Assembly: GCA_040006935.1 (NCBI GenBank)
Contig: JBDTVZ010000003.1
Coordinates: 1,102-65,101, forward strand
Direction of reading: 5' to 3'
From: Candidatus Dojkabacteria bacterium
Lineage (GTDB): Bacteria > Patescibacteriota > Dojkabacteria > J137
Length of the DNA: 64,000 bases
The position numbers were made by a program, and so were the translations under genes. A model generated the notes under the pieces. That model was not told the DNA's origin. It did not search any database and saw only the letters and a list, made by a program, of their open reading frames with translations. This document shows, piece after piece, positions 6,860 to 51,835 of the stretch; position 1 is the first letter of the stretch, and each line of letters begins with the position of its first letter.

Positions 6860-6944
6860 AGATTTATTGTAGCATTCAAAGATAATAGATTACAGATTGA
6901 GAATTTAATAATTATACTCTATCGGGAAGCAGGATTTCCTCAAC

Positions 6945-7035
6945 TTCGCAGGATAAACTTCGTACCGACCTCGGGCTTACCTGCCTGCGTGGCTGCGCCA
7001 GCAGTCAGGCAGGTGAGTCCCACGTTTTCTAAAAT
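6945..7035 (-). repeat. partial tRNA-Met duplicate (anticodon arm to degenerate T-arm) with a 34-nt hairpin insert in the anticodon loop
   Basis: Read on the minus strand: ...CGTGGGACTCA[34 nt]TAAGCCCGAGGTCGGTACGAAG... The genuine tRNA 18 nt away reads CGCGGGACTCATAAGCCCGAGGTCGGCAGTTCGA. The insert CCTGCCTGCGTGGCTGCGCCAGCAGTCAGGCAGG (6980-7013) is an imperfect palindrome with an 8-bp outer stem. Confidence 0.6.
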
Positions 7036-7047
7036 TATTAATGATAA

Positions 7048-7121
7048 TATCAGAGGGCAGGATCGAACTGCCGACCTCGGGCTTATGAGTCCCGCGCTCT
7101 AACCAACTGAGCTACTCTGAT
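7048..7121 (-). tRNA. tRNA-Met (anticodon CAT); elongator Met or Ile2(LAU) type not distinguishable
   Basis: Manual cloverleaf: acceptor ATCAGAG/CTCTGAT with discriminator A, D-arm GCTC/GAGC, anticodon loop CTCATAA, T-arm GGCAG-TTCGATC-CTGCC. 74 nt. There is an A31:G39 mismatch in the anticodon stem. Confidence 0.75.
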
Positions 7122-7212: not shown

Positions 7213-7992
7213 ATGACTAACGGAATTGATATCTCTGAATTTCAAGGTGATGTGAATTTTGATCTGTTGAATACGCAAATTGATTTTATTTTCATTAGGT
7301 GTTCTTTTGGTGTAGGTTACATGGATAATAAATTCGAGAGGAATCGCAACGAATCAAGAAGAGTTGGTATTTCTAGAGGGTTCTATCATTATGCCTATCC
7401 TCAATACAATAGTCCAGAAGAAGAAGCTAATTATTTTTGTTCTGTTCTAAGCGACTTGGAGAAAGACGAGTTAGTGGCTCTGGATTTTGAAGAACAATGG
7501 AGTGGCGATAAAGTTAACTGGTGTTTAAGATTTTTAAATAGAGTTCACGAAGTTTATGGATTTAAACCCTTACTTTATACAAACTTAGATAAGATTTATT
7601 CTGCAGAATGGACTGCAGTTGTAAATGCGGACTATGGATTATGGCTAGCTACCTGGGATGGGAATAATTCGATAGCACCCTCTACTCCCTGGCCTTTTGT
7701 TGCTTTTAAACAATATAGTTCAACGGGGAGCATAAGTGGCATTGAAGGCAATGTTGATTTTGATGTGTTTTTTGGTGATAAAAATTCATTAAAAAAATAT
7801 GGGTATCAACCTCCTATCAATATTCCTGATCCAATTGAAGATAATCATAATCCTCCAATTAATATACACATCCCTGTTTCAAATCCCATTGAGAATAAGG
7901 AACCAGCCTTTGTTATTGATAAAACTGACCCAACAGACTTGCTTAAAGTTTTTAGAGATCTTCTAAATAAATTCCTAACAATGTTTAGATGA
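7213..7992 (+). CDS. glycoside hydrolase family 25 muramidase (phage-endolysin-like, no signal peptide)
   Basis: GH25 motifs GIDISEFQG, FIFIRCSFG, GFYHYAYP, LDFE, LYTNL and FKQYSSTGSISGIEGNVDFDVFFG. No N-terminal signal peptide. Pro-rich C-terminal tail. Confidence 0.8.
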   Translation: MTNGIDISEFQGDVNFDLLNTQIDFIFIRCSFGVGYMDNKFERNRNESRRVGISRGFYHYAYPQYNSPEEEANYFCSVLSDLEKDELVALDFEEQWSGDKVNWCLRFLNRVHEVYGFKPLLYTNLDKIYSAEWTAVVNADYGLWLATWDGNNSIAPSTPWPFVAFKQYSSTGSISGIEGNVDFDVFFGDKNSLKKYGYQPPINIPDPIEDNHNPPINIHIPVSNPIENKEPAFVIDKTDPTDLLKVFRDLLNKFLTMFR

Positions 7993-8019
7993 GACCATTT
8001 TGTTAAATCAAAAAGCCCC

Positions 8020-8095
8020 TATTTCCGTTGATCTTCAGGTTACCTGCCTGCGTGGCTGCGCCAGCAGTCAGGCAGGTGAGCCTGACTCCAAGTCC
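8020..8095 (-). repeat. partial tRNA-fMet duplicate with the same 34-nt hairpin inserted in the anticodon loop
   Basis: Minus strand reads ...GGAGTCAGGCTCA[34 nt]TAACCTGAAGATCAACGGAAATAGGGGCTTTTT... The genuine tRNA-fMet reads GTCAGGCTCATAACCTGAAGGTCATCCGTTCGAATCGG...AAAGCCCCTATA. The insert at 8043-8076 is identical to that at 6980-7013. The duplicate even includes part of the tRNA's downstream terminator. Confidence 0.6.
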
Positions 8096-8129
8096 CTAAT
8101 GAATCTTTTCCTATAGCTGGCTTTAGACT

Positions 8130-8327
8130 TTAATCTTTTTCAAACTTCAATGCTTCGATTTCATTTTCAAATACTTTGTAACCTAAAAGCTTTAATGGCA
8201 GAAATCTTTTTGTAGTTTTAACTTTTCCCTTTTGGTGATACTGAAGCCTCTGCTCCATATTAGAAGTAAAACCATAATAATGAAATTTACTAACTTTCTC
8301 AGATAGAAGGCAATATACAAAAAACAT
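8130..8327 (-). CDS. small GIY-YIG nuclease family protein (UPF0213/YhbQ-like)
   Basis: MFFVYCLLSEKVSKFHYYGFTSNMEQRLQYHQKGKVKTTKRF...ENEIEALKFEKD matches the GIY-YIG single-domain family (YVYILxSxxxxxxYIGxTxNLxRRLxEHNxGxxxxTK). The track ORF extends to 8438 over the terminator and tRNA, so the start was trimmed to the internal Met. Confidence 0.7.
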   Translation of the reverse strand: MFFVYCLLSEKVSKFHYYGFTSNMEQRLQYHQKGKVKTTKRFLPLKLLGYKVFENEIEALKFEKD

Positions 8328-8340
8328 AATGAAGAATTTA

Positions 8341-8377
8341 TTATAATAAAAAGCCCCTATAAACGTATAGGGGCTTT

Positions 8378-8378
<1 letters not shown>
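8341..8378 (-). terminator. intrinsic terminator immediately 3' of tRNA-fMet
   Basis: 9-bp perfect stem GCCCCTATA/TATAGGGGC with a 4-nt loop (8353-8374). On the minus strand it follows tRNA-CCA-AAA and is followed by TTTTTATTATAA. An A-run and T-run flank it on both strands, so it may work bidirectionally. Confidence 0.7.
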
Positions 8379-8452
<74 letters not shown>

Positions 8453-8506: not shown

Positions 8507-8642
8507 CCCTCTCCTTTCAAGGAGAGGGCTAGGGTGAGGTCATACCGCACCGAAAACTCGTAATAGTTTTTGTGCGGTCCTTATTAGTTTTGCAAATTGA
8601 ATGAGATTACTTCCTCGTCTGTAACTCCTGGCAATGACACCG
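8507..8642 (+). repeat. structured intergenic repeat, copy A (H1 hairpin + GGGTGAGGTC...stem...GGTCC core + AATGAGATT...GCAATGACACC tail)
   Basis: H1 is CCCTCTCC-TTTCAA-GGAGAGGG. The core is GGGTGAGGTCAT-ACCGCAC-CG-AAAACT-CGTAAT-AGTTTT-T-GTGCGGT-CCTTATT. The tail is TTTGCAAATTGAATGAGATT...GGCAATGACACC. Copy B at 40036-40178 is collinear. Confidence 0.65.
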
Positions 8643-8675
8643 AAGTTTATGAGACCCCTCTTTTAATTGTTTTTT

Positions 8676-9086
8676 TTACATTAAAAGTTTAACCCACCAA
8701 TCTGTGTAATCTTTTTTCAAACCTAAATCTAATAATTCCTTTTGCTCATCTAAATAGACAGGCTTTTCTTTTGTTTGGAAAAGTCTTTCATTATCGGAAG
8801 CATAATTTGAGGTTTCTCTAAGTATCAATTTCCTATATTCATCTGACGATACAAAGGTATTCTCCTTCTGTAAATCATCATTTTTTGCAGTAATTTCATC
8901 TAAACTTACCTTCTCGCTTAAAAAAGTTTCGTAATTAGATTTTCCATTTGTTATTACCCTGATTATGTTCACACCCATAATGAAACTTAATGTGAGCATA
9001 AAAATAGTTAAAGGAACTCCTTCAATTACTATTGAATTCTTATAGGATACTATTTGTTTTTTGATATATTTGTAAAGCTTTCTCAT
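8676..9086 (-). CDS. hypothetical membrane protein (N-terminal TM, short coiled coil; FtsB/DivIC-like architecture)
   Basis: 136-aa ORF. TM helix LTIFMLTLSFIMGVNIIRVI followed by a predicted coiled segment (DDLQKEN). No firm family match. Confidence 0.4.
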   Translation of the reverse strand: MRKLYKYIKKQIVSYKNSIVIEGVPLTIFMLTLSFIMGVNIIRVITNGKSNYETFLSEKVSLDEITAKNDDLQKENTFVSSDEYRKLILRETSNYASDNERLFQTKEKPVYLDEQKELLDLGLKKDYTDWWVKLLM

Positions 9087-9162: not shown

Positions 9163-10014
9163 ATGAATAATGAAGATTTAATCAATAAATTTATTGAATA
9201 TTTAAAACGAAAGGGTAGGTCCGAATCCACTCTCATCGCTTATAAGGCCGACATAATCCAGCTTAGTCATAGTTCGACTAAAAATTTAATTAATTCCGGC
9301 GAAACTGAGATAAATAGTTTCTTAAAAAGACTTAAGGAAAATACAGGATTAACTCCTAAAACAATTTCTAGAAAATTGAACAGTATTAAAACTTTCTATA
9401 AATTTCTAGAGCTTAAGAATTTGGTAAATTCCAACCCTACCAAGGAATTACATCACCCTAAATTTATTAATGCTAAACCTAAATTCTTAAATAAAGATCA
9501 ATATCAAAGATTAAAGGATTCTGCTAAAGCGAGTCCAAAGAATTTTATGATGTTGGAACTTATGCTTCAAACAGGAATGAGAATTAGTGAAGTTTCGAAT
9601 TTAAAGATTAAGGATGTTGACTTAAATCGAGCTCATCCAAGAGTTGAAATTCGTGATAATAAAATAGTAACAAGACAAATTCCTTTAAATGACAAAATCT
9701 TTTTTGAACTAAAAGATTATATTTCTAGTATTGGCAAATCTGATTATGTGTTTACTACTAAGAATAATAAACCTATTGAGGTTCGGAATATTAGAGCTGC
9801 TTTAGATAGAGTGTTCTTGAAAGTAAAGTTACAACAGTACTGTGTTAATGATCTTAGAAATACCTTCATTGTAACGCAACTATCAAATGGCATGAAAATG
9901 TCTGCTTTAGCTAAGATTGTAGGCCATAAAAGCCCTACCGCAACAGAAAGGTACGTAGATATCTTATCTAGGAAGTATAAAGACAGAGGGATAGAGAGTC
10001 TATGCGAGTTATAA
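9163..10014 (+). CDS. tyrosine-type site-specific recombinase/integrase (XerC/XerD family)
   Basis: 283 aa. N-terminal core-binding (SAM-like) domain. C-terminal catalytic region with R...LRNTF...GHKSPTATERYVD (H-x-x-R ... Y). The gene ends 29 nt from the 3' end of tRNA-Ile. Confidence 0.8.
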   Translation: MNNEDLINKFIEYLKRKGRSESTLIAYKADIIQLSHSSTKNLINSGETEINSFLKRLKENTGLTPKTISRKLNSIKTFYKFLELKNLVNSNPTKELHHPKFINAKPKFLNKDQYQRLKDSAKASPKNFMMLELMLQTGMRISEVSNLKIKDVDLNRAHPRVEIRDNKIVTRQIPLNDKIFFELKDYISSIGKSDYVFTTKNNKPIEVRNIRAALDRVFLKVKLQQYCVNDLRNTFIVTQLSNGMKMSALAKIVGHKSPTATERYVDILSRKYKDRGIESLCEL

Positions 10015-10042
10015 AATCTCCTTTGTTAGATTGATGATACAA

Positions 10043-10116
10043 TAGGCCTTCGCGGACTCGAACCGCGGACCCCAGCTTTATAAGAACTGTGCTCTAACCA
10101 GCTGAGCTAAAGGCCT
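10043..10116 (-). tRNA. tRNA-Ile (anticodon TAT/UAU)
   Basis: AGGCCTT-TA-GCTC-AGCTGGTTA-GAGC-A-CAGTT-CTTATAA-AGCTG-GGGTC-CGCGG-TTCGAGT-CCGCG-AAGGCCT-A. Canonical 74-nt cloverleaf with UAU in the anticodon position. Confidence 0.8.
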
Positions 10117-10170
10117 ATGAATGAGTAATGAGAGTATAGCAAAATCTTCTTTACGATACCAGATTGAGAG

Positions 10171-39394: not shown

Positions 39395-39432
39395 CACGAA
39401 CGTGTGATGGCCTTTTGGTGGAGATGACCGGT
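39395..39432 (-). terminator. intrinsic terminator (minus-strand reading)
   Basis: Hairpin GCCATCACACGTTCGTGGTGGC (7/8-bp stem). On the minus strand it is followed by TTTTTTATTT. It lies between the upstream ORF-free region (and comF) and the yidC promoter region. Confidence 0.5.
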
Positions 39433-39997
39433 TACCCGGTGTCCATGTAAACTTCAAATAACACAGCTTTACATACTTAGTACATTTGGATACATAAGCT
39501 CATAAAAATATACAAAAACAAGCTTAAGAATCTCCCCTATCTTAATTTCAAAACTAAAAGATTAAAGGGTTTTGAAAAGCATTCTAACTTTGGGACGCTT
39601 ACAGTTCTCATTAGAAGGAAGAAATTGTAAACGGCAGTCCTACTTGTTGTTTCGGTCTGCTCTTATATTTTAGGCAAATGCATAATTCACATTTCCCAAA
39701 GGAGCAGTGAGTAAATTCTTTACAAAAGATACAAGATTTGAAATTGGTTTGACGTTTAGGTCAAGTTTGCCCGAAGGCAAGTTAAATTTTTTTTAACGAA
39801 GATTCTTAACTAAACTTCGGTATGCTATGAAATTTTTAATCTACTGTCGAGAAAACATCCCCCTTAAAAAGTCTTCCGTTCTGAGTTTCCAGTCTTGAGA
39901 AACTACTTAAGGTGAACGATTTCAGACATGTTAATTATACCATAGAATAACAATTTTGACGACACTACTCTCCGGCTCTTATTTCGACCAGGCCGCG

Positions 39998-40178
39998 TTA
40001 CCTGCCTGCGTGCGCAGTCAGGCACGGCAGCCTAATCAGAATGCTCCCTCTCCTTTTAAGGAGAGGGTTGGGGTGAGGTCATACCGCACGGAAATCACAA
40101 GACCGCTTGTGTGCGGTCCCTATAGATTTGCTAATTAATGAGATTGCTTCGAAAACTTCGTCTCCTCGCAATGACACC
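39998..40178 (+). repeat. composite repeat, copy B: diverged 34-nt-hairpin homolog + H1 + covarying core + tail
   Basis: TTA-CCTGCCTGCGTGCGCAGTCAGGCACGGCAGC (diverged form of the 6980-7013 hairpin). H1 CCCTCTCC-TTTTAA-GGAGAGGG. Core GGGGTGAGGTCAT-ACCGCAC-GGAAAT-CACAAG-ACCG-CTTGTG-T-GTGCGGT-CCCTAT. Tail TAATTAATGAGATTGCTTCGAAAACTTCGTCTCCTCGCAATGACACC. Confidence 0.65.
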
Positions 40179-40197
40179 AAGAACATTGAGACTTCTT

Positions 40198-40896
40198 TTA
40201 ATTATTTATTCCTCCCGACTTCGCAAAGGTATACCCATAGACTCTTTGGACTCCATTCTCCTTAAGAACTTTTGCACACTCATTTAAAGTACTTCCCGTA
40301 GTATAAACATCGTCAACTAGAATTACTGAACTTGTGGAATACACATGCTGAAGATCTTGATCAATTGCGAAGATTCCTTTTAGGTTAGAACGTCGTTTTT
40401 CACCACTCAGATCTGCTTGCGCAGAAACATCTTTAGTCCTTTTTAATAAGTTGATTGTCTTAAAATCAATATATTTTGAGATCTCGTTACAAATTACCTC
40501 TGACTGATTAAATCCTCTTTTATTCTTTTTCTTTCTAGTTAAAGGTATTGGAACAAGAATTGAATGCTCATCAAGGCTAAAGAGCCTAATGAACTTGGAC
40601 ATTTTCTGTCCGATAAATTTGAAATTATTATAGTAAAAAGAGTATTTACCCTGCATAATGAGCTCTTTGACTCCTTCGTTATAGCTCACCATGAATATAT
40701 GACCATCTAAAAATGTTTGATCCTTACATTCATCATGGATAAAACCTCTTTTTACCTTGGAATTACAAACACAGCAATATGTATTCCAATTTACAAATAT
40801 TTTATCTCTAATGCAGCGGGTGCATAAGGACACTCCTACTCTATTACACATTAGGCAATAACTTGGTATCAAAGTATTTATAATTGGATTAAACAT
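40198..40896 (-). CDS. comF: ComF family protein (phosphoribosyltransferase domain)
   Basis: N-terminal Cys4 zinc ribbon (CLMCNRV...CTRC). C-terminal PRTase motif ILVDDVYTTGSTLNE. Confidence 0.75.
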   Translation of the reverse strand: MFNPIINTLIPSYCLMCNRVGVSLCTRCIRDKIFVNWNTYCCVCNSKVKRGFIHDECKDQTFLDGHIFMVSYNEGVKELIMQGKYSFYYNNFKFIGQKMSKFIRLFSLDEHSILVPIPLTRKKKNKRGFNQSEVICNEISKYIDFKTINLLKRTKDVSAQADLSGEKRRSNLKGIFAIDQDLQHVYSTSSVILVDDVYTTGSTLNECAKVLKENGVQRVYGYTFAKSGGINN

Positions 40897-43333: not shown

Positions 43334-43436
43334 CCCTCCCCTTAATTTAAGGGGAGGTGTCCGCCTTATGCGGACGGTGGGGTTAATACCGCACCAGAAT
43401 CACACGAATGTTTGTGCGGTCCTTATTTGAGTTCTT
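43334..43436 (+). repeat. structured intergenic repeat, copy C (H1 + extra hairpin + core; no tail)
   Basis: CCTCCCC-TTAATTTAA-GGGGAGG; extra hairpin GTCCGCCTTATGCGGAC; then GGTGGGGTTAAT-ACCGCAC-CAGAATCACACGAATGTTT-GTGCGGT-CCTTATT. Lies between convergent genes. Confidence 0.6.
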
Positions 43437-43668: not shown

Positions 43669-44869
43669 CCAGAGCTTCCTTATTCAAGTAGTTAGTTTTA
43701 TATATATCTAGCAAGGTGAATAATATAACGATTATTAGTGGTCCGTAGAATATTCCAAAGAATCCGAATATTCCTATTCCCCCGATTACACTGAGGATCG
43801 TTACTAATGGATGAAGGTTTACGTCTTCTTTAATTAGCCTTGGTCTTAATATAGAATCTACAACGTTAATCATTATTCCACTGTAAACGATTATAAATAT
43901 TCCAGCTATGACCCCTGCTGGTGATTGGTTTACAAAACCTTGGATAATCATTATTGCTCCAATTGGTGCCCAAACTAATCCCGATCCTATTGGAATTATT
44001 GAGAGGATAAGCATAATGATCCACAGTAATACTGGTGCCCCTACTCCAAGAAAAATCATCGGAATTATTACCACTGTGGCTTGTGCAATTGCGACTATAA
44101 AACTTCCATTAATTACACTTTTTAATGTATTTATAAACTTTCTATAAATAATTTCATCATATTTAGCATCTAACGGAGAGAATTTTGCCACAATCCTTGG
44201 TAATTTCTCATATGCTGGGAACATATAAACTAAACAAAGAATAAGAATAAATATACTAAAAAGTATCCCTCCTCCTATAGAAATTAAGTCTTTTAATATT
44301 GGAAGTAGTTGATTAGATAGAAAATCGGATTGACGAACTCCAGCAATAAGAGTTTGCAAGTCCAGCTTAGAAATATTATCTGAGAAATTATTTATATAGG
44401 TAACAGCTTGATCAATTGAATCCTTAAATCCTTTAAAACTATCCAGATTATCTAAGATTCCTGTAGATCGAATTACGTTTTGAACTTCGTTAATGCTAAA
44501 TACAACTATCAAAACGATTGGAACTATAAATAAGACTAGTACTAAAATAATAGATAATGTTGTAGATAGTCCATTACTCTTTGTCTTATCCTTTATGAAC
44601 GCGTATATGGGATGGAAAAGTTGAACAATAATCAAACTTAATATTAATACATTAAAGAAGGGAGAAAAAACGTTAAATGCTAAACTCGCAAACAATATTA
44701 GTGCAAATAGAAGCATTAAATCTTTAGCTTTCAAGGAACTAAGTTGCTTCATTTGGGAGTAAATAAGAAAAATACTAAATAAGCATAGCATTTTGATAAC
44801 TACTATGACAATAAATTTATCCAGCTCTAGCTTGAAATTTTGGAGTCTACTGGTATAATCAACGTGCAT
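43658..44869 (-). CDS. AI-2E family transporter (PerM-like permease)
   Basis: Polytopic membrane protein, 8 TM, with AI-2E-like layout. The true start is probably an internal Met, because the annotated start abuts tRNA-Asn. Confidence 0.7.
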   Translation of the reverse strand: MHVDYTSRLQNFKLELDKFIVIVVIKMLCLFSIFLIYSQMKQLSSLKAKDLMLLFALILFASLAFNVFSPFFNVLILSLIIVQLFHPIYAFIKDKTKSNGLSTTLSIILVLVLFIVPIVLIVVFSINEVQNVIRSTGILDNLDSFKGFKDSIDQAVTYINNFSDNISKLDLQTLIAGVRQSDFLSNQLLPILKDLISIGGGILFSIFILILCLVYMFPAYEKLPRIVAKFSPLDAKYDEIIYRKFINTLKSVINGSFIVAIAQATVVIIPMIFLGVGAPVLLWIIMLILSIIPIGSGLVWAPIGAIMIIQGFVNQSPAGVIAGIFIIVYSGIMINVVDSILRPRLIKEDVNLHPLVTILSVIGGIGIFGFFGIFYGPLIIVILFTLLDIYKTNYLNKEALDEI

Positions 44870-44941
44870 TCCTCCTTAGCTCAATGGTAGAGCAATCGAC
44901 TGTTAATCGGTGTGTTGAAGGTTCGAGTCCTTCAGGGGGAG
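44870..44941 (+). tRNA. tRNA-Asn (GTT)
   Basis: TCCTCCT-TA-GCTC-AATGGTA-GAGC-A-ATCGA-CTGTTAA-TCGGT-GTGT-TGAAGG-TTCGAGT-CCTTCA-GGGGGA-G cloverleaf with anticodon GTT. Confidence 0.8.
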
Positions 44942-45039
44942 TTCTTAACCTGAATTCTCAATTCTTTACCTTATACTTAATTCTAAGAATTTAGATTAAG
45001 AATTAGGTAGTACCACTCTCCTATAAATCTAACAAGTCT

Positions 45040-45105
45040 AATGGTGGATTCCGCCTAGGCGGATTAATCGGTGTGTTGTCCGTTTCCTCCAGGGGCGGAC
45101 TTCTA
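45040..45105 (+). repeat. degenerate duplicate of the tRNA-Asn 3' half, beginning in the anticodon loop
   Basis: GGCGGATTAATCGGTGTGTTGTCCGTTTCCTCCAGGGGCGGAC, compared with the genuine tRNA TGTTAATCGGTGTGTTGAAGGTTCGAGTCCTTCAGGGGGAG. The 15-nt block TTAATCGGTGTGTTG is identical. It lies about 100 nt downstream of the tRNA in the same orientation. Confidence 0.55.
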
Positions 45106-45285
45106 GCAGCACTTAAAGGGGAGTTTTTTATTTCTTCAATATTAGCGTAAAAGTTGTAGGAACCTCATAACCCAAAATACCCAACTCTCTTGATTGTTTC
45201 CCAATGTTCTCATTTAATTGAATAATCTTGAATCCAGCTTCCACCGAACTATTTATATATTCTTGAAAAGTAAATGTCGGATGCT

Positions 45286-51630: not shown

Positions 51631-51712
51631 ACTCTCCTCCTCTTTTAAGAGGAGGTCGGGAGGAGTTAATACCGCCCCGAAATCACTCTTTTCTTTGGGC
51701 GGTCCTTTTTGG
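51631..51712 (+). repeat. structured intergenic repeat, copy D (H1 + core with compensatory stem; no tail)
   Basis: CTCCTCCTC-TTTTAA-GAGGAGG(TCGGGAGGAG) then TTAAT-ACCGCCC-CGAAATCACTCTTTTCTTT-GGGCGGT-CCTTTTT. A further hairpin CCCCTCTTACAAAGAGGGG follows at 51731-51749. Confidence 0.55.
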
Positions 51713-51835
51713 TGTCCATAACTCCCCTAACCCCTCTTACAAAGAGGGGAATAGTTATACCGTCGATTTCTATTGTGGATCTGCATAAATAAATGTAAAA
51801 TACAGATTGAATTTATCTGATTAAAAATTCAAAAT

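Follow-up and report, generated by a model that had tools for sequence, protein, structure and literature searches.

A GC-rich palindrome family at loop centres of redundant tRNA copies and its association with small GIY-YIG nuclease genes in Dojkabacteria and other bacterial phyla

The stretch of 64,000 nucleotides (nt) from Candidatus Dojkabacteria bacterium analysed here (assembly GCA_040006935.1, contig JBDTVZ010000003.1, positions 1,102 to 65,101 of the forward strand), referred to below as the window, contains two identical 34-nt hairpins in partial copies of two transfer RNA (tRNA) genes, tRNA-Met and the initiator tRNA-fMet, and a small GIY-YIG nuclease gene between the tRNA-fMet gene and its partial copy. 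We find good support for the conclusion that these hairpins are members of a palindrome family which is distributed over several phyla, is linked to small GIY-YIG cassettes located at tRNA genes, and occupies the exact loop centres of redundant tRNA copies. We further propose that the palindrome is a module accompanying tiny selfish tRNA-gene cassettes that spread by homing, and that the window holds relics of such cassettes, a proposal whose mechanistic part we infer and whose merits we judge to be evenly balanced. The searchable literature, which is incomplete, gave no description of an arrangement of palindrome, GIY-YIG gene and tRNA, and the arrangement is called undescribed only provisionally.

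Results

Palindromes in the partial tRNA copies of the window

Both parent genes are intact and lie on the minus strand, the elongator-type tRNA-Met (anticodon CAT) at 7048-7121 and the initiator tRNA-fMet (CAT) at 8378-8452, with a lysozyme gene (7213-7992) between them. Each is followed, just 3' in the sense of the tRNA and in the same orientation, by a displaced partial copy of itself without the acceptor 5' strand and the D-arm (minus strand, about 6925-7031 for tRNA-Met and about 8010-8089 for tRNA-fMet), and each partial copy is split in its anticodon loop by the palindrome, copy 1 at 6980-7013 and copy 2 at 8043-8076. A first, sequence-only reading of the window had reported identical hairpins at these two places, and the 34-mer CCTGCCTGCGTGGCTGCGCCAGCAGTCAGGCAGG is indeed present at both on the plus strand with no mismatch (copy 1 is antisense with respect to the strand of the pattern used in the genome scan described below), against a chance expectation of 0.00 in 100 shuffles even with three mismatches allowed. 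Of its 34 bases 25 are G or C, in a window with a GC content of 31-37%, and as DNA it is predicted to fold into a hairpin of -12.4 kcal/mol with two alternative registers.

That reading had also placed both hairpins at the same anticodon-loop position without target-site duplication, and this is confirmed to the base: in the sense of the tRNA the two copies break CTCA|TAA between A35 and U36 of the CAU anticodon, and at this 35|36 junction no base is duplicated and none is lost. The flanks of the palindrome in the Met copy align to tRNA positions 19-36 and 37-65, with a T-arm that is degenerate and partly repeated, and those in the fMet copy align to positions 25-34 (10 of 10 bases) and 35-48 (13 of 14). 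After position 48 the fMet copy shows a deletion and then the 3' half of a second copy (AAATAGGGGCTTTTT, 8010-8023) of the terminator-like hairpin that directly follows the tRNA-fMet gene (8351-8376, minus strand). The two 34-mers are identical to each other, whereas the pseudo-tRNA sequences flanking them carry substitutions and indels.

Both sites are empty in a relative. A related Dojkabacteria contig (locus L120) shares the gene order PolA-DUF4377-FtsH-tRNA-Met-lysozyme-tRNA-fMet with the window, its tRNAs being 96-97% identical to those of the window, its lysozyme 60% identical and its fMet terminator nearly identical. At neither tRNA does L120 have a partial copy, a hairpin or a GIY-YIG gene, and no gene lies between the terminator and the lysozyme gene; the tRNA-Met and tRNA-fMet loci of L120 are the empty sites from which the earlier reading had expected mobility to become visible.

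The nuclease gene of the window

The nuclease gene (8068-8327, minus strand) consists of an open reading frame (ORF) of 65 codons (8133-8327) ending in a stop, after which the frame resumes one base over at 8139-8068. The fragment matches Pfam family PF01541 with E = 4.4e-13, and the public annotation of this metagenome-assembled genome (MAG) has it as a 65-amino-acid (aa) GIY-YIG protein. With the frame corrected the protein is 88 aa long and ends in ...RDLESGSPA*, its TGA stop (8068-8070) being supplied by palindrome copy 2. Set against the intact relatives P0077 (...LRGSPA) and P0078, the sequence suggests that one T has been lost from a run of T (GATTTAAAG to GATTAAAG; 8130-8140), and the frameshift could be either genuine decay or an artefact of assembly. 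Among solved structures the nearest relatives are the UPF0213 proteins 1zg2 and 1ywl and SLX1; the protein is a stand-alone GIY-YIG nuclease of the Slx1/UPF0213 type, 80-90 aa long and consisting of the catalytic domain alone. A word-indexed protein search with the window protein returned only itself; an exhaustive search with the 65-aa fragment as query gave a family of 864 representative clusters, mostly of 77-130 aa, many of them with N-terminal extensions that are translated tRNA and some of them tandem fusions. Family proteins of 77-90 aa match PF01541 only, with no recognisable sequence-specific DNA-binding module.

Distribution and sites of the palindrome family

A pattern scan with a variable centre, made over one genome per species, located the palindrome family at a minimum of 119 genome loci. 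Those listed are mostly from Bacteroidota (Chitinophagaceae, Saprospiraceae, Bacteroidales, Cyclobacteriaceae and Flavobacteriales) and also include Saccharibacteria, Ignavibacteriaceae and Neomarinimicrobiota. The common form is the 27-nt core CCTGCCTGCGTGACGCAGTCAGGCAGG, to which the 34-nt form adds seven central bases that produce an inner stem. The exact 34-mer of the window was found in a Chitinophaga MAG (L046) as well. No match to the palindrome pattern was obtained among the 2.9 million viral contigs of IMG/VR, which makes a phage vector unlikely. The empty sites in L120, the occurrence of the family at this many loci across phyla, the identical 34-mer in L046 and the absence of target duplication bear out the earlier suggestion of a small mobile or transferable element.

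The family is concentrated at tRNA genes. A tRNA or transfer-messenger RNA (tmRNA) gene lies within 300 nt of 34 of 133 palindrome copies, compared with about 1% expected by our own estimate if some 45 tRNA genes are distributed over 4 Mb. Among the contexts of 135 copies are the T-loop (49 copies), CAT anticodon loops (4) and Arg(CCG) anticodon loops (about 7), and for about 44% of the copies the position falls exactly within a loop of a tRNA pseudo-copy. Most frequent as a site is the T-loop sequence GGTTC|GAATCC, split at local position 55|56 (canonical 56|57), in copies of tRNA-Glu, Leu, Arg, Ser, Thr, Cys, Gln, Phe and Met as well as of tmRNA (L047, L092 and L095); copies of tRNA-Arg(CCG) are split at 35|36, and a few palindromes lie in D-loops. 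The targeting of Met-tRNA anticodon loops proposed from the window alone is thus borne out as one of several sites, CTCA|TAA recurring in the three loci L018, L124 and L129 of the candidate phyla radiation (CPR), but not as the rule for the family. In alignments with the neighbouring tRNAs the flanks are consecutive tRNA positions, with no base gained or lost. Both orientations are used: strictly defined T-arms hold 12 palindromes in sense and 7 in antisense, and at CTCA|TAA the loci L018 and L129 carry 34-mers that are exact reverse complements of each other; the left flanks vary (TTC, CTCA or TTA, TTCC, GATA). The strict T-arm pattern matched this palindrome family only, in loci that had been preselected for that family. 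A more general rule, that the palindrome always sits in the loop of a pre-existing hairpin, was rejected: flanking stems of at least 5 bp accompany 33% of the copies against 23% of re-paired controls, weak support for a rule that holds for tRNA-like contexts and not generally.

Some loci carry the palindrome in unusual tRNA arrangements. Tandem arrays of tRNA 3' ends in units of 80-305 nt, with a palindrome in each T-loop, occur in L013, L030, L070, L084 and L090, and most of these arrays have no nuclease gene inside. In a Ferruginibacter tRNA array (L065, 1400-2800, minus strand) one of the palindrome-bearing genes has a second, unrelated palindrome, CCCGATAGCTATCGGG, in its anticodon loop, and one tRNA-like gene of the array is called a 95-nt tRNA-Ile by ARAGORN.

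Association of the palindrome with GIY-YIG genes

In Bacteroidota the elements are typically arranged in the order tRNA, terminator, GIY-YIG gene, and a tRNA copy that starts at about the anticodon loop and has the palindrome in its T-loop, often followed by a second copy of terminator and nuclease gene that is truncated; tRNA-Glu, Leu, Arg and Phe are among the tRNAs that host such cassettes. Of 145 ORFs lying within 600 nt of a palindrome, 14 match GIY-YIG, more than match any other Pfam family, and no family with at least two matches in this set is a transposase or an integrase.

The strength of the association can also be gauged from the side of the nuclease, in an unbiased sample of 120 homologues selected solely for their similarity to a GIY-YIG protein of the Chitinophagaceae type. 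In 45 of them the ORF stops before the tRNA copy, and in about 72 it enters the T-arm copy, giving tails like ...GGDTGS. At least 64 of these 72 or so end in the palindrome family or read through it (46 end in ...LPA*, with the stop inside CCTGCCTGCGTGA, 9 in ...LPD* and 6 in ...LPE*, both due to variants of the family, and in 3 the frame passes right across the palindrome). Point variants are seen in about 7, and none reads through an intact T-loop. The nearest GIY-YIG neighbour shares the palindrome type in 51 of 60 cases, compared with 35.3 +/- 4.4 in 2000 permutations. In four cassettes all 27 of 27 palindrome bases are invariant while about two thirds of the alignment columns of the nuclease gene vary, so that the palindrome is maintained, or continually renewed, with much greater fidelity than the sequence around it.

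Related loci in CPR genomes

A search for relatives with a two-sequence alignment gave five loci, and the architecture of the window is found in the CPR relatives L018, L124, L129, L130, L131 and L135. The syntenic tRNA-fMet is occupied by a cassette in the window and in L129, L130, L131 and L135, and is empty in L120. The damaged tRNA copy is the downstream one in the window, L018, L129 and L130 and the upstream one in L124, L131 and L135; relative to the nuclease ORF, the palindrome is on the 3' side in the window and on the 5' side in the last three. The damage in these CPR cassettes always takes the form of CCTGCC...GGCAGG-type palindromes, at 14|15, 25|26, 35|36 or in the T-loop. In L129 (2241-2380) a complete tRNA-Met gene stands between two halves of the family palindrome, which itself splits a tRNA-Met pseudo-copy at 35|36. 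In L018 (2440-2500) more decayed family palindromes are present near the acceptor 3' end and in the loop of the duplicated terminator hairpin of the displaced unit only, the functional unit having none of them.

A gene for a tyrosine recombinase (9163-10014) and a small gene (8676-9086; DivIC-like in relatives) also neighbour tRNA-fMet in L129, L130, L131 and L135. The recombinase scores best against Xer families, and the pair looks like ordinary synteny outside the element.

Other features of the window

The diverged third hairpin that had been described at the head of copy B of a structured repeat is also a family member, a decayed short form at 40001-40026 that differs from the intact short form by a few changes and lies 14 nt from repeat B. 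Its site (39985-40040, minus strand) has fMet-type flanks in alignment (AGGCT..|..TAAC) and stands between repeat B and the tmRNA gene (39416-39862), which follows about 140 nt downstream. The composite repeat itself is present in at least four copies (8507-8650, 40046-40200, 43335-43420 and 51634-51749), each of which opens with the hairpin CCCTCTCC..GGAGAGGG, or one closely similar to it, and continues with a hairpin ACCGCAC...GTGCGGT, and it matches no Rfam family. Palindrome and repeat had been suggested to form one composite element; they are adjacent at copy B, as claimed, but at copy B only, and the suggestion is weak.

The tRNA-Asn gene (44869-44942) is accompanied about 100 nt downstream by a decayed pseudo-copy (45040-45125, plus strand) that carries other GC-rich palindromes at positions of the same type, CCGCCTAGGCGG immediately ahead of position 35 in the anticodon loop and, in the T-arm, TCCGTTTCCTCCAGGGGCGGA. 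Hairpin-bearing pseudo-copies of the gene itself therefore stand beside three of the four tRNA genes of the window, and a decayed fMet-type copy stands beside the tmRNA gene. The fourth, tRNA-Ile (10042-10117, minus strand), has no adjacent pseudo-copy; its anticodon TAT is an uncommon way of reading AUA in bacteria. An intergenic stretch of 45 nt upstream of the L25 gene (37421-37465) has CCTGCC...GGGCAGG arms around an AT-rich centre and may be a relative of the palindrome with "cargo" or a chance match. Perfect GC-rich hairpins number 14 in the window, compared with about 0.4 in shuffles.

Discussion

Proposed homing cassettes and the points against them

If the cassettes spread by homing, the nuclease would break tRNA-gene DNA at the centre of a loop, possibly when the gene is extruded as hairpins, and repair of the break from a cassette-bearing copy would carry the cassette into the new site, the palindrome being copied along as it sits at the edge of the copied segment. 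By destroying the target in the redundant tRNA copy the palindrome would give immunity from re-cutting, and since recombination upstream of it would give a dead tRNA, loss of the cassette would be disfavoured. Palindromes in tRNA arrays and elsewhere would have arrived by the same break-and-copy route via short homology. The fMet site of the window would then be a relic with the full architecture and one apparent frameshift, and the Met site a relic that has lost the gene and kept its hairpin-bearing pseudo-copy.

A number of observations weigh against this proposal. The evidence for the break site and for homing is anatomical only, and the supposed target would persist in the intact tRNA copy, which leaves the immunity of cassette-bearing genomes incompletely explained. 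Of the 135 palindrome copies, 82 lie outside recognisable tRNA loops (about 60% in the Bacteroidota loci), and many of these are within short tandem repeats with no GIY-YIG gene nearby. The tRNA-like genes of the L065 array, which are full-length with intact stems and bear the palindrome in the T-loop, and a full-length tRNA-Arg copy in L102 have no adjacent nuclease gene, which implies that the palindrome can spread on its own. Conversely, GIY-YIG genes follow directly after a tRNA in the CPR loci L126-L128 without partial copy or palindrome. At the shared CTCA|TAA site the palindromes of the relatives differ, being sense and 34 nt in L018, antisense and 34 nt in L129, and antisense and 27 nt in L124, and such differences in orientation and length fit turnover or re-insertion better than simple co-inheritance. 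Unrelated palindromes are found at the same positions in L125, L130 and the tRNA-Asn copy of the window, and the co-variation of palindrome type with the relatedness of the nucleases could reflect ordinary vertical descent of orthologous loci.

Many of these observations are what would be expected if the palindrome were an independent, non-autonomous mobile repeat, similar to repetitive extragenic palindromic (REP) sequences, miniature inverted-repeat transposable elements (MITEs) or GC clusters, that colonises dispensable sequence offering the right short target or hairpin loop and in whose spread the nuclease plays no role. We regard this main rival, on which pseudo-tRNA copies beside GIY-YIG cassettes would just be the targets most often tolerated, as a possible explanation, though a doubtful one. 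It would readily accommodate the copies far from any GIY-YIG gene, the full-length genes of L065, the several unrelated palindromes at identical positions, the two orientations and length variants at one site, the sharing of an identical 34-mer between a CPR genome and a Chitinophaga genome, and the spectrum from perfect to decayed copies (those at 40001-40026 in the window and 2440-2500 in L018 being examples of decay). What it accounts for less easily is that displaced T-loops are nearly all occupied, none being intact in the unbiased sample of nuclease homologues, for which a neutral coloniser would need a very high rate of insertion; that GIY-YIG is the only recurrently linked gene family; that the palindrome is invariant across cassettes with strongly diverged nuclease genes; and that no candidate transposase was found among the recurrent families of the hairpin-adjacent ORFs or in 20 window ORFs. 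A MITE in the strict sense was rejected: the palindrome does have inverted arms, but its flanks continue one another along the tRNA and show no target-site duplication. An independent repeat and a palindrome accompanying homing cassettes are not mutually exclusive.

The palindrome could also be the recognition element of a minimal, hairpin-dependent homing system, in which the nuclease would bind the CCTGCC...GGCAGG arms, as DNA or in its own transcript, the flanking tRNA segments would direct it to the matching tRNA-gene loop, and exchange of flanks would re-target it, making a nuclease of two parts guided by structure or by homology; we consider this elaboration unlikely.

A role in RNA is, in our view, more doubtful still. 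The hairpin-bearing tRNA fragments might be functional RNAs, such as decoys or elements of processing or stability co-transcribed with the tRNA or with the nuclease mRNA, or the hairpin might be an intron-like insert that is removed from RNA. The fragments immediately follow highly transcribed tRNA genes and share their orientation, the hairpin lengthens the anticodon stem or the T stem (one T-arm example is predicted at -19.4 kcal/mol, z = -5.7), the inner stem shows one compensatory change (TGGC/GCCA versus TGAC/GTCA), and the tRNA-like genes of L065 retain their stems. A functional RNA is, however, hard to reconcile with the use of both orientations at one site, which changes the loop and the strand-specific sequence, with the varying position of the palindrome relative to the nuclease ORF, with the missing acceptor 5' strand and D-arm of the window copies, or with the complete lack of such fragments in the close relative L120. 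Nor is there an Rfam family for them, the matches being to tRNAs and tmRNA only, both at gathering thresholds over the window and 19 loci and at permissive E-values around the three window copies. A tRNA intron, whether of the bulge-helix-bulge type or of group I, was rejected: the host tRNA copies are incomplete, the flanks form internal loops of 4 nt and 3 nt on inspection of the predicted fold where a bulge-helix-bulge would be needed, and 34 nt is far too small for a group I intron.

The sequence-only reading had speculated on a derivation from insertion sequences (IS) of the IS200/IS605 type. An element of this type, or of the REP-associated tyrosine transposase (RAYT) type, would move as single-stranded DNA with the help of a Y1 HUH transposase whose gene lies elsewhere in the genome. 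The palindrome agrees with such an origin in being a hairpin whose insertion duplicates no target, and it reaches REP-like abundance in some Bacteroidota MAGs, with several loci per assembly (e.g. CAWFMT01 and CAIOYH01). Two of the three defining features nevertheless fail, as there is no fixed target word on one side, both orientations occurring at the same phosphodiester bond, and a single symmetric palindrome of 27-34 nt takes the place of two distinct hairpin ends, left and right. No Y1_Tnp, OrfB_IS605 (TnpB) or IS110 family was present among those recurrent (matched by at least two of the 145 ORFs) near 136 copies or in 20 window ORFs, a search limited to those ORFs and not extended to whole genomes. 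We think this origin very improbable.

Finally, the earlier reading had considered attachment-site (att) scars of an integrase recombining in the anticodon loop. In a wider form of this idea the partial tRNA copies would be scars of tyrosine-integrase elements recombining in the anticodon loop or T-loop, the hairpin being debris of the crossover; the two loops are the classic crossover sublocations of tRNA-targeting integrases, as Williams is said to have set out in 2002, direct repeats of tRNA 3' parts are present and a tyrosine recombinase gene lies at 9163-10014, but this sole, Xer-like recombinase of the window is outside the repeats and syntenic in relatives, just 1 of 128 other loci has a similar gene, the stretch that separates the repeats (about 25-360 bp) holds GIY-YIG only and no integrase, and integrase recombination does not insert a conserved palindrome of 27-34 nt, so that this explanation is largely refuted and hardly worth retaining.

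Comparison with known systems

Mitochondrial endonuclease ORFs can carry a replacement 3' end of their host gene, as in Allomyces atp6-ORF360. In phage T4, SegB is a free-standing GIY-YIG homing endonuclease whose gene lies in a tRNA gene cluster (PMC2330249). The cassettes resemble such free-standing homing genes in that a nuclease ORF is lodged at a conserved gene and is present or absent between relatives, in that an intact target copy and a displaced partial copy stand on either side of the ORF, and in the neighbourhood of tRNA genes. They differ from I-TevI and the Seg proteins in having a protein of 80-90 aa from the Slx1/UPF0213 branch, with the catalytic domain alone and no recognisable DNA-binding module. 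They are chromosomal in several bacterial phyla and, judged by the palindrome, missing from 2.9 million viral contigs; in the displaced copy a conserved palindrome occupies the centre of a loop; and, unlike the homing genes, the cassette is known from sequence alone.

Slx1 cuts branched and stem-loop DNA, an activity that would suit a target defined by hairpin loops. The structure-specific nucleases of the Slx1/UPF0213 group (YazA, BH0048, EF2693) are the best sequence relatives with solved structures, but the cassette protein has neither an Slx4-like partner nor a zinc-finger extension, and its genes behave in the genome as a mobile cassette and not as a housekeeping repair gene.

Among palindromic elements, the Allomyces double-hairpin elements and the Rickettsia palindromic elements are comparable. 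The palindrome is most reminiscent of mobile GC clusters, being a short GC-rich palindrome in an AT-rich genome with a sporadic distribution, identical copies across species, variants that arise by nesting or merger, and conservation above that of its flanks; the yeast mitochondrial GC42, a mobile GC-rich palindromic cluster of an AT-rich organelle genome, is an example (PMC4478555). In contrast to these clusters it lacks a target duplication, prefers exact loop positions in tRNA copies, is linked to one nuclease family, and has as hosts free-living and episymbiotic bacteria of several phyla. It shares with REP sequences and bacterial interspersed mosaic elements (BIMEs) of RAYT systems, and with IS200/IS605-derived elements, an imperfect palindrome of 20-40 nt in many copies per genome without target duplication; unlike them it has no conserved head tetranucleotide, takes both orientations at one site and inserts inside tRNA-like hairpin loops; no Y1 transposase was seen nearby among the recurrent families of the hairpin-adjacent ORFs.

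The attB site of Ms6, which lies in a tRNA T-loop (PMC1762012), illustrates the likeness to integrase sites in tRNA and tmRNA genes, which extends to the sublocations in anticodon loop and T-loop, the direct repeats of part of a tRNA and the use of tmRNA. The cassettes differ in that no integrase lies inside the repeats, in an insert of only tens to hundreds of bp, and in the interruption of the crossover region of one repeat by the palindrome. By analogy, the whole would work most like a free-standing GIY-YIG homing gene, its target kept by partial duplication, combined with a mobile GC-rich palindrome. It is set apart from both by its minimal nuclease, by loop-centre precision without duplication, by the near-obligatory pairing of cassette and palindrome, and by its host range.

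Conclusions

Genes for tRNAs are classically the sites at which integrases land. These findings suggest that, next to the integrative elements, there is a second and much smaller class of selfish DNA at tRNA genes that uses the same two loop positions as the integrases and consists of a catalytic-domain-only GIY-YIG nuclease and a conserved palindrome, in Bacteroidota, CPR bacteria and other phyla. Hundreds of protein clusters would be involved that are now annotated only as "GIY-YIG nuclease family protein". Such a class would account for many of the odd tRNA fragments, tandem arrays of tRNA ends and tRNA-like pseudogenes that these genomes contain, for ORFs spuriously extended by tails like ...GGDTGSLPA, and for part of the load of GC-rich hairpins in AT-rich CPR genomes. 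Cultured carriers exist, for example Psychroflexus longus (L007), so that the idea is directly testable. Should the nuclease indeed cut tRNA genes in their hairpin loops, it would offer a compact tool with structure specificity, and the cassettes would provide a new model for homing elements that spare an essential target.

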